A DNA stretch of 64,000 nucleotides from Candidatus Woesearchaeota archaeon (GTDB taxonomy: Archaea > Nanobdellota > Nanobdellia > Woesearchaeales > JAZDKJ01). Positions 1,102-5,245 of this stretch are shown piece after piece. Location of the stretch: positions 1 through 64,000 of the forward strand of contig JAZDKJ010000010.1 of the NCBI GenBank assembly GCA_043803105.1, read 5' to 3'. Both the position numbers and the translations under genes were made by a program. Numbering within the stretch: position 1 is the first letter of the stretch; the number at the start of each line of letters is the position of its first letter. The notes under the pieces were generated by a model. The model had not been told where the DNA came from. It was given only the letters and a program-made list of their open reading frames with translations, and did not search any database.

Positions 1102-1256
1102 GCCTCGGTAGCTTAGACATCAGTGCCTCCTTTAGCACGATGAAGCAACAGGTGGAGCGTGTGGCTGTTATTCGCCATTTTGGCCGAAAAGAGACCACAA
1201 GGTCAGCAGAATACAGTAGAGGAGCTGTTTGCTGAATTCGAGTCTGCTCCGAGGCG
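1102..1256 (+). tRNA. tRNA-Asn(GTT) with three introns (15/16: 1117-1148; 37/38: 1171-1193; 53/54: 1210-1236)
   Basis: After removing three hairpin inserts bounded by BHB-like motifs: acceptor GCCTCGG/CCGAGGC, D-stem GCTT/GAGC, anticodon stem TGTGG/CCACA with loop CT-GTT-AA, T-arm AGCAG-TTCGAGT-CTGCT. Confidence 0.92.
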
Positions 1257-2039
1257 TTCCTCATTTTCCAGTTTTTCAAGCATTAACAACCTGTCCTGAA
1301 TTGTCGTACCGGGTGGTACATGCCCAATTTTTTTCCACAATTCGATTCTACTCAAGTGATTAGGATTCATAAAACCAATTGTACTTAACCATAGACTAAG
1401 CGTTTTCACTCCATTCAACTGCATGTAGTACGACGAAAGTTGAGACTTGTTTCTTTGTTGTATCCTCTGCCCGCGATGAACAGGAAAGCCTAATATTTTC
1501 AAAGTTGATGTAACGAAATCCCATAACTCTTGATTACAAGTTTGGTAATCAACAACAGGATAGTAGTTAATCAACTTATGTCTATTCTTGAAAACAACTG
1601 AGAAGTCCGTGTCTGCAAGACCTCTCAGAAATGCAATTTTTAGGTTCATCGGCGCTTTTAGGATAATTCTTGGTGGAGGACTGTGACTTTTTGATCCAAC
1701 CGGCATTCCGCAAGAAAATTGCATAAAAGAGTGGATTGCTTTTGAGTTCAAAGTAAGTTTAATGCTCCCATGACCTTCACAAATCTTCGGAGTTCGTCGA
1801 AATAGATGACGAAAAAGAGGAACTACACAGGTCTTACACCAAATAAGATCATTTATTGGATGGCCATCATATTCTATCCTATACTCAAAAGGTCTTTTAA
1901 CCAAATGCCCATCACCCATATGTATTCCCAGGAAATAGGCTAAATTGCTATCCAATTTCCCTGGAACCTTAGTAAGAGTAATTTTATCGTTCTTACTGTA
2001 ACGCACATCTCTAAGGTTTATAGGGATGATTAAATCCAT
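1203..2039 (-). CDS. Free-standing double-motif LAGLIDADG endonuclease
   Basis: Motifs LAYFLGIHMGDG and FLRGLADTDFS; no intein splicing motifs seen. The 3' end runs antisense into tRNA-Asn. Confidence 0.88.
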   Translation of the reverse strand: MDLIIPINLRDVRYSKNDKITLTKVPGKLDSNLAYFLGIHMGDGHLVKRPFEYRIEYDGHPINDLIWCKTCVVPLFRHLFRRTPKICEGHGSIKLTLNSKAIHSFMQFSCGMPVGSKSHSPPPRIILKAPMNLKIAFLRGLADTDFSVVFKNRHKLINYYPVVDYQTCNQELWDFVTSTLKILGFPVHRGQRIQQRNKSQLSSYYMQLNGVKTLSLWLSTIGFMNPNHLSRIELWKKIGHVPPGTTIQDRLLMLEKLENEERLGADSNSANSSSTVFC

Positions 2040-2079
2040 TAGAAGCCTCTGACGACACTTATTATTAAGTTCTGCGTAT

Positions 2080-2091
2080 AAATGTCCAGTG
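2080..2091 (-). promoter_or_regulatory. CACTGGACATTT upstream element, copy 1 (LAGLIDADG gene)
   Basis: Identical 12-mer also at 9169-9180 (-) and 59632-59643 (+), each about 10 nt upstream of a TATA-like box. Confidence 0.6.
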
Positions 2092-2110
2092 AAATTTTCA
2101 AAAAAAGATT

Positions 2111-2126
2111 GTCTGCTCCGAGGCGT
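2111..2126 (+). repeat. Duplicated 3' end of tRNA-Asn (16-bp direct repeat, att-like)
   Basis: GTCTGCTCCGAGGCGT at 1242-1257 and 2111-2126. Confidence 0.9.
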
Positions 2127-3422: not shown

Positions 3423-3542
3423 GGGCCCGTAGCTTAGCCTGGTGTTGTGCCCGAATGATAATCGGGCGGTCCGGAGTTCAAATAGTTGGCGACGAAGTCG
3501 GCAACGACCGAAAGCGTCAGCTTGACTGTCTCCGCGGGCCCA
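3423..3542 (+). tRNA. tRNA-Ile(GAT) with a T-loop intron (59/60: 3483-3528); D-stem atypical
   Basis: Acceptor GGGCCCG/CGGGCCC-A, anticodon stem CCCGA/TCGGG with GAT, T-arm CGGAG-TTCAAAT-CTCCG after intron removal; TTTATAAA at 3390-3397. Confidence 0.8.
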
Positions 3543-3629
3543 TTTTTCTTTCATTTTTATGACTGGGGGACTCCGGTCCGCAGACTTGGAGTCGCCCTCG
3601 GGATCAAGGAACAAGACCCTTGGTGGGAA

Positions 3630-3646
3630 TCTCCGCGGGCCCATTT
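3630..3646 (+). repeat. Duplicated 3' exon of tRNA-Ile (17-bp direct repeat)
   Basis: TCTCCGCGGGCCCATTT at 3529-3545 and 3630-3646. Confidence 0.9.
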
Positions 3647-3691: not shown

Positions 3692-5245
3692 ATGTCTAAG
3701 TCGAGCATTGCCCAGCTTTCAAGTGATGCAGCAATAGACCTTGCTATCGACACTATCGGCAAGAAAAAGCAGGCCTTGATTTTTGTCAACACTAAGCGCT
3801 CTGCCGAGAAGGTTGCTGAAGACTTAAGCAAGAAAGTGAGGCTTGCAAGCCCTGAGTTGGACGAGCTTTCAAAAAAAGCACTCAAAGTTCTCTCAAAGCC
3901 AACAAGGCAGTGCGAGCGATTGTCAAAATGCTTGAAGAAAGGCGTTGCATTTCATCATGCTGGCCTTGCTCACCAGCAAAAAGAGCTTGTCGAGGATTCT
4001 TTCCGTTCTGGCCTGGTGAAGATTATTGCTTCCACCCCCACACTTGCACTCGGTGTCAACCTTCCTGCTTTTAGGGTCATTATGCGTGATGTCAAGCGCT
4101 ACACCCACCAGGGTTATGTTCACATTCCTGTGCTAGAATACCACCAAATGTGTGGTAGGGCAGGCCGCCCGCAGTTTGATGCTTACGGTGAGGCCATCTC
4201 CGTTGCTTCTTCAGATGATGACCGTGATGATCTTGTTGATAGGTTTATCAGGGGAGCTCCTGAGGCAATCTATTCAAAGCTTGCTGTTGAGCCTGTTCTA
4301 AGGACCTATCTTTTGTCTTTGATTTCTTCTAACTTTGTCAACACAAAGAAGAGTATTATGGATTTTTTTGCAAAGACCTTTTGGGCTTTCCAGTTCAAGG
4401 ACCTTAACCATCTGCAGAAGATTATTGAGAAGATGCTCCGCCTTCTTGAGGATTGGGAGTTTGTCCAGTCTTCTTCAAAGGATGATTTTCAGTCTGCCTC
4501 GCAAATTGCCGATGAAAGGTACAGGGCTACTGCTCTTGGCCAAAGGGTTGCTGAGCTTTACCTTGATCCCCTGACAGCTTTTAATCTCTGCAATCGCCTG
4601 AAGCGCGCAAGTATGCAAACAATCACAGCCTTTTCCTTTCTCCAGATGGTTTCCCACACCTTAGAGCTAAGGCCTCTCTTGAAAGTCAAGGCCAGAGAGT
4701 TTGAGAAGATGCAGGAGGTCCTTGCAGAGCATGATTCTGACCTTCTTGAGGACGAGCCTTCCATGTTTGAGCAGCATTATGAGGATTTCCTGAATTCTGT
4801 GAAGACCTCCTTGTTCATGCAGGATTGGATTGAGGAAAAGGACGAGGAATATTTGCTTGAGACATATGATATCCGTCCAGGAGAGATTCGTGTCAAGCTC
4901 GACCTTGCTGATTGGCTATTGTACGCTTCTTATGAGATGGGCAGGATTCTTGGCCTTCAGCCCTTATTAAAAGAGGTCGCCAGGGTTCGCATAAGGTTGC
5001 AGTATGGTGTAAAAGAAGAATTATTGCCTTTGCTAAAGCTTCGCAACATCGGCAGAGTTCGCGCAAGGATGCTCTTCAGGAACAGCATTAAGAGCATTGG
5101 TGATGTCAAGAAGGCAGAACTCGCAACCTTGACTCAGATCTTGGGAAAGCAGATTGCCCTGAGTGTGAAAGAGCAAGTCGAGAAGCCAATTGAGCCTGTC
5201 AAAGAGAATAAAAGGAAGGGCCAGATTAATCTGGAAGACTATTAA
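3692..5245 (+). CDS. hel308: Hel308/Ski2-like helicase lacking the N-terminal RecA1 (Walker A/DExH) domain
   Basis: GVAFHHAGL, STPTLALGVNLPA, QMCGRAGRP and C-terminal HhH (LRNIGRVRARMLF); no GKT or DExH motif. Confidence 0.85.
   Translation: MSKSSIAQLSSDAAIDLAIDTIGKKKQALIFVNTKRSAEKVAEDLSKKVRLASPELDELSKKALKVLSKPTRQCERLSKCLKKGVAFHHAGLAHQQKELVEDSFRSGLVKIIASTPTLALGVNLPAFRVIMRDVKRYTHQGYVHIPVLEYHQMCGRAGRPQFDAYGEAISVASSDDDRDDLVDRFIRGAPEAIYSKLAVEPVLRTYLLSLISSNFVNTKKSIMDFFAKTFWAFQFKDLNHLQKIIEKMLRLLEDWEFVQSSSKDDFQSASQIADERYRATALGQRVAELYLDPLTAFNLCNRLKRASMQTITAFSFLQMVSHTLELRPLLKVKAREFEKMQEVLAEHDSDLLEDEPSMFEQHYEDFLNSVKTSLFMQDWIEEKDEEYLLETYDIRPGEIRVKLDLADWLLYASYEMGRILGLQPLLKEVARVRIRLQYGVKEELLPLLKLRNIGRVRARMLFRNSIKSIGDVKKAELATLTQILGKQIALSVKEQVEKPIEPVKENKRKGQINLEDY

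Follow-up and report, generated by a model that had tools for sequence, protein, structure and literature searches.

T4 SegB is a free-standing GIY-YIG phage enzyme encoded in a tRNA gene cluster; it is thought to cut a nearby endonuclease-free allele and to be copied there by repair, and to our knowledge no duplicated tRNA end, link to an intron or specialization of clades on particular tRNAs has been described for it. Mitochondrial endonuclease open reading frames (ORFs) insert in the 3′ end of host genes, such as fungal rps3 and atp6, and bring a replacement end that keeps the target functional. Randau and Söll reportedly proposed that introns shield tRNA genes from the mobile elements that land there. 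For integrating elements, this idea is stated in an archaeal study of the tRNA-Thr(GGU) gene of Caldiarchaeum subterraneum, where a tRNA fragment recurs as a direct repeat on either side of a mobile 1.8-kb insert (Sugahara et al., 2012; PMC3293823). Its authors proposed that an intron-bearing tRNA segment borne by the element replaced the host segment and may block further invasion (PMC3293823). Here, we describe a locus in a 64,000-nt stretch of DNA from a Candidatus Woesearchaeota archaeon (assembly GCA_043803105.1, contig JAZDKJ010000010.1, positions 1–64,000; hereafter the window), in which a LAGLIDADG gene lies between two copies of the 3′ end of a tRNA-Asn gene. Positions 1203–2126 are read as a free-standing LAGLIDADG homing cassette at the 3′ end of tRNA-Asn(GTT), and this reading, including the homing route proposed below, is given a probability of roughly 0.6.

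The features of the locus, in window coordinates, are as follows.

1102–1256, forward strand: tRNA-Asn(GTT) gene, called by ARAGORN after in-silico removal of inserts; three inserts are read as introns.
1117–1148, forward strand: D-loop insert of 32 nt, with bounds taken from intron-less tRNA-Asn genes of relatives.
1171–1193, forward strand: canonical 37/38 intron of 23 nt, as called by ARAGORN.
1210–1236, forward strand: T-arm 53/54 intron of 27 nt, AATACAG...TTGCTGAA, whose tail TTGCTGA pairs with exon TCAGCAG (positions 47–53).
1242–1257, forward strand: direct repeat copy 1, tRNA positions 59–73 plus one base, inside the functional gene.
1203–2039, reverse strand: free-standing double-motif LAGLIDADG gene of 278 aa, with motifs LGIHMGDGH (D43) and FLRGLADTDF (D145).
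2077–2091, reverse strand: endonuclease promoter, with TATA box ATTTATA at 2077–2083 directly preceded by the CACTGGAC element at 2084–2091.
2111–2126, forward strand: direct repeat copy 2, an orphan tRNA-Asn 3′ end with positions 59–73 plus one base and without T-loop positions 54–58.

The original prediction, made from the letters of the window, held that the last 16 bp of tRNA-Asn recur at 2111–2126. The match is exact: the 16-mer GTCTGCTCCGAGGCGT stands at 1242–1257 and 2111–2126 and at no other window site even with up to two mismatches, while 0.01 matches are expected in the window by chance and two copies were obtained in none of 100 shuffles. No third copy was found across the 1.56-Mb genome, which holds exactly two. 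On one side of the orphan copy is the endonuclease promoter, and on the other a plsX-like gene with its stop at 2142. The inter-repeat interval (1258–2110), predicted as ~850 bp, measures 853 bp and contains only the LAGLIDADG ORF and its promoter; neither integrase, transposase nor terminal inverted repeats were found in it by ORF list and Pfam, and there was no intein or group I intron signal, with a weak LAGLIDADG_3 match as the only Pfam hit and Rfam empty. A reading of 1210–2110 as one giant intron spliced to a distal 3′ exon was rejected, since the distal copy lacks T-loop positions 54–58.

Integrating elements classically leave direct repeats of a tRNA 3′ part, as described for archaea in PMC3293823, and the 16-bp repeat could be taken as the attL and attR of a decayed integrase-type virus or plasmid (SSV or pNOB8 style) in the tRNA-Asn 3′ end. 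Such an origin is highly improbable, however, given that no integrase or integrase fragment lies between the repeats, that an interval of just 853 bp is filled by an intact endonuclease gene and its promoter, and that the same gene family abuts tRNA ends at dozens of unrelated loci.

No tRNA was called in the raw 64-kb window by ARAGORN, nor by Rfam at the gathering threshold; both overlooked the tRNA-Asn gene because three inserts interrupt it. When 1210–1236 and the D-loop segment were removed, ARAGORN called tRNA-Asn(GTT) with a 23-nt intron in many neighboring deletion registers. The arms read at 1102–1257 are GCCTCGG/CCGAGGC (acceptor), TGTGG-CTGTTA...CCACA (anticodon) and AGCAG...TTCGAGT-CTGCT (T-arm), and folding of the precursor gave z = −3.6. 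The 53/54 insert ends 5 nt (TTCGA) before repeat copy 1, the distance that had been predicted. For this intron, a strict bulge-helix-bulge assignment was not achieved, and the documented structure is the exon–tail helix.

The endonuclease ORF is antisense to the tRNA gene, starts 783 nt past its 3′ end and, as anticipated, runs into it without an earlier stop. The stop codon at 1203–1205 falls inside the 5′ strand of the T-stem, with an ORF/tRNA overlap of 54 nt. An intron-encoded endonuclease of an archaeal bulge-helix-bulge intron was ruled out, as the ORF is antisense and outside the tRNA inserts, which are 23–32 nt long. An intein was likewise ruled out by the stand-alone ORF with its own TATA box and start codon and by Pfam results that include no Hint domain, and a group I intron by the lack of any Rfam family at threshold anywhere in the window. 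A permissive covariance scan of 14 loci returned just tRNA and chance matches.

At the protein level, the Pfam model LAGLIDADG_3 scored 17.4 bits, below its cut-off of 22.5, and NCBIfam holds no dedicated model for the endonuclease family. Among 5.8 billion proteins, 20 relatives were found, the closest 56% identical and most about 261 aa long; those with a name are each a “hypothetical protein” of Candidatus Woesearchaeota. The family-conserved part of the window ORF ends near residue 258–261, and its last ~17–20 residues are antisense-tRNA read-through, because the closest homologues are about 261 aa. Both catalytic residues, D43 and D145, are invariant in an alignment of 25 sequences (A1), and in the wider family D43 is kept in 57 of 59 and D145 in 59 of 59 sequences. 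The alignment profile produced 20 hits among PDB sequences, including the TliVMA intein (2.6e-14), PI-PfuI (2.5e-8) and I-Tsp061I (1.3e-7), and matched I-DmoI with an E value of about 1e-5 to 3e-6. An AlphaFold2 model (mean pLDDT, 94.2) shows the order alpha-beta-beta-alpha-beta-beta-alpha twice, plus extra C-terminal helices. Foldseek matched this predicted model with a probability of 1.00 to I-DmoI (target-normalized TM, 0.72–0.74), I-Tsp061I, PI-PfuI and the endonuclease domain of the TliVMA intein, and bI3 maturase was also among the fold matches. The product of ORF 1203–2039 is accordingly a monomeric double-motif LAGLIDADG homing endonuclease with an I-DmoI-like predicted fold, and the window gene is a real LAGLIDADG homing-endonuclease gene, probably active to judge by its conserved catalytic residues.

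The source genome (G000) consists of 13 contigs and 1.56 Mb and is 96% complete. Homologues of the protein of ORF 1203–2039, which are referred to as the family, were searched for in 40 related genomes, one per family of the order, and in a genome of the same genus (G001; 84% complete). G000 itself contains three close paralogues of the window gene and one distant paralogue, and all three close ones abut tRNA genes. The end of the paralogue on contig C6 coincides exactly with the 3′ end of a convergent intron-bearing tRNA, and the second copy on contig C10 directly follows an initiator-like tRNA, also with an interrupted T-loop. The occurrence of the family is patchy, with matches in 16 of the 40 related genomes and none in G001. 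A scan of one genome per species added 54 further loci in Woesearchaeota, Pacearchaeota, Aenigmatarchaeota, Micrarchaeota, Iainarchaeota and other DPANN bins, and a metagenome scan with the endonuclease protein yielded a single relative, L114; the orphan copy plus flank had no match in the metagenome scan. A full-text literature search, with subscription journals outside its coverage, returned no description of LAGLIDADG genes at archaeal tRNA gene ends, and the family is apparently undescribed.

A set of 68 family loci, each oriented on the endonuclease ORF, was run with ARAGORN. At 38 of these, a tRNA overlaps the ORF 3′ end or lies within 40 nt of it (28 convergent and 10 co-directional). 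T-loop scanning, reading and in-silico splicing revealed 11 more convergent tRNAs, which ARAGORN had missed because their T-arm is interrupted, bringing the total to at least 49 of 68; at some of the remaining loci, a tRNA precedes the ORF. In a maximum-likelihood tree of 59 proteins, from which nine rows were excluded for length or internal stops, clades follow tRNA identity. By the Shimodaira–Hasegawa-like approximate likelihood ratio test (SH-aLRT), the Asn clade (13 rows, including the window protein) has 99% support, the Cys clade 100%, and the Thr clade, which includes the C6 paralogue, 99%; a Tyr group and an initiator group, the latter with the other C10 paralogue, were also found. Over the 29 labeled rows, for some of which the identity of a multi-intron tRNA is uncertain (Tyr versus His), tRNA identity changes 7 times on the tree, compared with a minimum of 13 and a mean of 17.1 in 300 label shuffles, a result that is not to be read as a probability because relatives share labels. 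The family lives beside tRNA genes DPANN-wide, in clades each tied to one kind of tRNA.

The distant paralogue (C13:44916–46085; locus L004, 991–2160) is joined in frame with a diverged second copy of the first ~74 GlmS residues, and a full glmS begins 4 nt before the stop of this endonuclease gene. This locus is either an endonuclease-plus-duplicated-target-end layout at a protein gene or a degenerate GlmS intein.

In the window, the TATA box lies about 40 nt upstream of the endonuclease ATG, and GAGG is found 8 nt upstream of it. With at most one mismatch, CACTGGAC occurs within 300 nt upstream of the ORF in 37 of the 68 family loci, in many DPANN lineages, at a density of 2.62/kb compared with 0.12/kb elsewhere in the loci. 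The element CACTGGACA (window 2084–2091) generally lies 10–20 nt upstream of TATA boxes. It is also present at the paralogue C10:102199 and at seven other G000 promoters, one in the window (about 9180, reverse strand) and six outside it; a transposase-like ORF, an exonuclease-like ORF and small ORFs are among the genes behind it. CACTGGAC was therefore rejected as a cassette end or recombination site, and it is not cassette-specific, because it stands at seven other, ordinary promoters of G000. The CACTGGAC/CACTGGACA element is probably a promoter or operator element common to several genes. Between the TATA box and the Shine–Dalgarno sequence, L030, L031, L036, L037 and L068 have a conserved long inverted repeat or hairpin leader of ~100 nt, which is seen in several family members and is lacking in the window gene.

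Exact repeats of at least 16 nt bracket the ORF in 5 of the 68 loci, namely the window (16 nt), L010 (18 nt), L013 (23 nt), L014 (20 nt) and L068 (20 nt), while shuffle controls reached at most 12–16 nt. The order in L013 is a complete tRNA, the convergent ORF and a ~100-nt orphan copy that spans the anticodon loop to the 3′ end; this orphan has a 42-nt T-loop insert, and the working gene has none. The duplicated piece in L014 is a tRNA 5′ end, and in L010 tRNA-like copies flank both sides. When the 20-nt 3′ end of the working tRNA was aligned locally, remnants were detected upstream of the ORF in seven loci (L001, L013, L038, L043, L060, L068 and L070; empirical p ≤ 0.007). Reading also revealed diverged or shorter remnants immediately next to the promoter element in L056, L067 and L076. 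In most cases, the orphan piece has decayed. As the original prediction had anticipated for homologues, about seven independent loci have the gene between duplicated pieces of a tRNA, and the recurrent layout is a working tRNA, the endonuclease gene, its promoter and an orphan tRNA end.

A tRNA-Asn comparison set was collected with the window sequence from T-loop to discriminator as the pattern (up to two mismatches) over 300 other genomes of the order, 34 of which matched; 30 tRNA-Asn loci, the window among them, were examined. No family gene is present at 26 of the 30, and none of these 26 has a 53/54 insert. The insert is present in three of the four loci with a family gene (the window, L085 and L086, with the family gene downstream in each), a contrast of 3/4 with 0/26 that rests on two lineages because L085 and L086 share a genus. 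In the fourth, L113, the family gene lies upstream of tRNA-Asn and there is no 53/54 insert. The 29-nt 3′ region GGTCAGCAGTTCGAGTCTGCTCCGAGGCG of the window is identical and uninterrupted in L084, whose contig of 1,322 nt shows no endonuclease match in the 635 nt downstream. The empty alleles foreseen among relatives were thus found as gene-free tRNA-Asn genes (26 of 30; L084), but not as an isogenic pair with conserved flanks. A search for public sequencing runs, whose reads could show filled/empty polymorphism, returned none. At the DNA level, G001 shares with the window only one 27-mer and one tRNA 5′ end and is therefore useless for synteny; its tRNA-Asn was found neither by the 3′ pattern nor by a 5′ pattern, which matched another tRNA.

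Further 53/54 inserts stand beside convergent family genes, both in tRNA-Asn (L023, L030, L036, L037, L038 and the metagenome locus L114) and in other tRNAs (L008, initiator; L068 and probably L070, Thr; L049 and L058, Tyr). A 53/54 intron of one design is present in at least 12 HEG-adjacent tRNAs of four identities, where HEG denotes a homing endonuclease gene. These inserts are 20–34 nt long and start with A, and 12 of 15 end in GAA. In 12 of 14 HEG-adjacent cases, the insert tail pairs over 5–7 bp with exon positions 47–53, and the pairs covary (TCAGCAG/TTGCTGA, TCGACAG/TTGTCGA, TCGGTGG/CTGCCGA, TCGCTGG/TTGGCGA and TCACC/GGTGA).

These distributions also bear on another reading, in which the gene has been domesticated and is inherited vertically as a host factor linked to tRNA genes, such as one that regulates their expression or assists it in the manner of a maturase, with the repeat as an incidental local duplication. 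The order of ORF end on tRNA end is conserved in many lineages, the promoter element is common to ordinary host promoters, no recent transfer is visible, and LAGLIDADG maturases are known, with bI3 among the fold matches. A host factor is nevertheless quite unlikely in view of the patchy distribution (matches in 16 of the 40 related genomes but not in G001), the 26 of 30 comparable tRNA-Asn loci without a family gene, the several paralogues at different tRNAs in one genome and the orphan tRNA pieces on the far side of the gene. Pure LAGLIDADG maturases often lose the catalytic Asp, whereas both are nearly invariant in this family.

In the homing route proposed for the cassette, which is the simplest account and a form of intron-less homing, the enzyme would recognize about 20 bp of uninterrupted T-arm/acceptor DNA in a cassette-free tRNA gene and cut there. 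The break would be repaired from a cassette-bearing copy, with the tRNA body as one homology arm and the orphan tRNA 3′ piece (plus flank) past the endonuclease promoter as the other. Repair would bring in the endonuclease gene together with a functional tRNA 3′ part, and the resident 3′ end would be stranded as repeat copy 2. In the working gene of the occupied allele, the target would be split by the 53/54 intron, which would later be spliced from the RNA; in the orphan copy, it would be broken by the missing positions 54–58. The occupied allele would escape cutting because the contiguous target is gone. This route agrees with the idea of the original prediction and parallels the model proposed for the recombinase-bearing insert at the Caldiarchaeum tRNA-Thr gene (PMC3293823). 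The 53/54 intron and the truncated orphan both interrupt contiguous T-arm sequence that is present in empty alleles. Cleavage, the cut site, the direction of copying and the protective role of the intron are inferred.

Besides the two-lineage basis of the tRNA-Asn contrast, several observations weigh against this route. An isogenic filled/empty pair with conserved flanks was not found among the relatives, and, with 56% identity to the closest homologue, no recent transfer is visible. The endonuclease gene of L085 and L086 lies against the neighboring tRNA-Ile and not against the intron-bearing tRNA-Asn. The right-hand homology left in the window is 16 bp, too little for efficient recombination now. 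A tRNA-Ala gene of G000 (C6:316521–316646) has a 53/54 insert of a different design with no endonuclease gene nearby. About 28 convergent HEG-adjacent tRNAs keep an intact T-stem, and the T-arm of the HEG-adjacent tRNA in L033 is identical to that of cassette-free alleles. The 53/54 intron therefore accompanies just a minority of cassettes, and a target wholly in the T-arm with protection by the intron only cannot be general; in family members without a T-arm intron, the target must reach past the T-arm or be disabled otherwise. Inserts with duplicated gene ends but without an HEG also occur (window 3529–3646, L026, L028 and L085), so a process other than homing could make the duplication. The selfish tRNA-targeting cassette of the original prediction is thus partly supported, namely by the tRNA-tied family, the bracketing duplications, the gene-free alleles and the co-occurrence of the intron, but the ~28 intact T-stems, the 53/54 insert of tRNA-Ala and the HEG-less inserts weigh against its simple form.

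The tRNA genes of G000 were recovered poorly: ARAGORN with introns allowed found 9, the Rfam tRNA model 6 above threshold and a home-made scan 13. Most tRNA genes of this genome must be multiply interrupted or otherwise unconventional, and there is no reliable background rate of 53/54 introns for it, because the home-made genome-wide scan recovered just 13 genes. It is possible, if on balance doubtful, that the family is a major maker of disrupted tRNA genes in DPANN archaea, in that homing would install a 3′ exon with a ready-made spliceable 53/54 (or 59–61) intron and strand the old end, the HEG-less inserts being non-autonomous or decayed riders. If this were true, endonuclease genes would be a source of non-canonical T-arm introns and orphan tRNA pieces and not just a selective force in their favor.

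The HEG-less insert of the window and its surroundings comprise the following features.

2142 to about 3320, reverse strand: PlsX-like gene of bacterial type (FA_synthesis; E value, 7e-49).
3423–3542, forward strand: tRNA-Ile(GAT) with a 46-nt insert at 60/61 (3484–3529), about 1.3 kb downstream of the cassette.
3529–3545 and 3630–3646, forward strand: 17-nt repeat of the tRNA-Ile end, TCTCCGCGGGCCCATTT, with an 84-nt spacer and no gene between.

The spacer (3546–3629) contains a terminal 27-mer (3596–3622) that is 100% identical in at least four G001 contigs, where it lies behind a variable GC hairpin and is bordered by a duplicated gene end, of 13 nt from a tRNA (L028) or of 35 nt from the 3′ end of a protein gene (L026). 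The short insert at tRNA-Ile may be a miniature mobile insert. In L085 (G160:C52; 1520–1665), two additional solo copies of (AT)GCTCGGGGGCGT lie behind the working tRNA-Asn end, with spacers of 55–70 nt, and look like stacked scars of repeated insertions; the next gene is a multi-intron tRNA-Ile with a convergent endonuclease gene. In L115 (G001:C74; 1443–1520), a second copy of the tRNA 5′ end CGCCTCTGTAGCATA lies 58 nt before the gene, so end duplications occur at 5′ ends too, as in L014. Duplicated gene ends around short gene-less inserts are common in the genus of the window genome, and these inserts could represent cassettes that have decayed or are non-autonomous, or else have arisen by another insertion process, to which the 16-bp repeat might also be due.

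The latter would be a separate trans-acting process in which the upstream gene has its end duplicated through a staggered-cut integrase, a casposase-like enzyme or template switching, and for which the endonuclease is cargo or a later arrival. The window tRNA-Ile, with a 17-nt repeat around an 84-nt spacer and no HEG, is consistent with it, as are the 27-mer in at least four G001 contigs with its 13-nt or 35-nt duplicates, the two solo tRNA-Asn ends of L085 and the duplicated tRNA 5′ end in G001. The interval 1258–2110, however, contains no integrase, transposase or terminal inverted repeats, and duplicate length ranges from 13 to about 100 nt. Furthermore, the copies in L013, L038, L056 and L070 are not alike in sequence or intron content, as those of a fresh target-site duplication would be, and the endonuclease family tracks tRNA identity, which passive cargo would not do. 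Such a process is considered an unlikely source of the window locus.

At least 10 of the 30 tRNA-Asn loci have a tRNA-Ile gene no more than a few bases after tRNA-Asn. In the window, this pair is split by the cassette, the orphan end and the plsX-like gene, and the interval from tRNA-Asn to tRNA-Ile looks like an insertion hotspot. The plsX-like neighbor, tried as a synteny anchor, was not found in five related genomes and was possibly acquired. Its long ORF call (to 3644) would add ~110 N-terminal residues without homology, which overlap tRNA-Ile and probably remain untranslated. A Hel308/Ski2-like helicase ORF (3692–5245, forward strand) begins at Helicase_C, with domain 4 and HhH present; no DEAD/ATP-binding N-terminal half lies upstream, where the preceding 370 nt contain tRNA-Ile and the short insert instead. 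This gene may be split or truncated.

The homing cassette and its family touch the old question of why archaeal tRNA genes so often carry odd introns and are split or fragmented. The family explains in part why standard finders recover just 9 tRNA genes in a 96%-complete genome. The proposal that introns act as a shield becomes directly testable, because the invader is a single-gene family with dozens of variants, each tied to one tRNA with or without an intron. The family also offers a set of small meganuclease-type enzymes (about 260 aa) whose 20-bp specificities presumably differ.

Compared with the archaeal enzymes I-DmoI and I-Tsp061I and the intein endonucleases PI-PfuI and TliVMA, the predicted model of the window protein has the same monomeric double-motif fold and catalytic Asp positions. 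The known genes are encoded in the sense direction in rRNA introns or inteins, whereas the window gene is free-standing, antisense and outside the tRNA introns. With an identity of about 20% to the solved archaeal enzymes, the window protein also has an extra conserved C-terminal helical part (WKK.G..PP.T motif; helices 226–271). Like that of T4 SegB, which acts in a tRNA gene region, the endonuclease gene lies between genes and not in an intron. The targets of the fungal rps3 and atp6 ORFs are organellar protein-coding genes, whereas the proposed window target is an archaeal tRNA gene whose function would be kept with the help of a spliceable intron; the C13 paralogue of G000 at glmS is a protein-gene version of this gene-end layout.

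The Caldiarchaeum locus shares with the window a tRNA-fragment repeat around an insert and an occupied tRNA that gained an intron (PMC3293823). That insert encodes a putative DNA recombinase, site-specific recombination was proposed, and the 5′ fragment was duplicated (PMC3293823). The sole gene of the window cassette, by contrast, is a LAGLIDADG endonuclease, and the pattern spans a whole protein family. Elements of the SSV and pNOB8 types resemble the cassette in their tRNA 3′ target and direct repeats of the tRNA end (PMC3293823), but they need a tyrosine recombinase and span kilobases, neither of which holds for the cassette. Free-standing HEGs, gene-end duplication, tRNA genes as landing sites and intron gain from mobile elements are each of a known kind; what is new is their combination in a single-gene LAGLIDADG family, with clades specialized on tRNA identities and a recurrent uniform T-arm intron.

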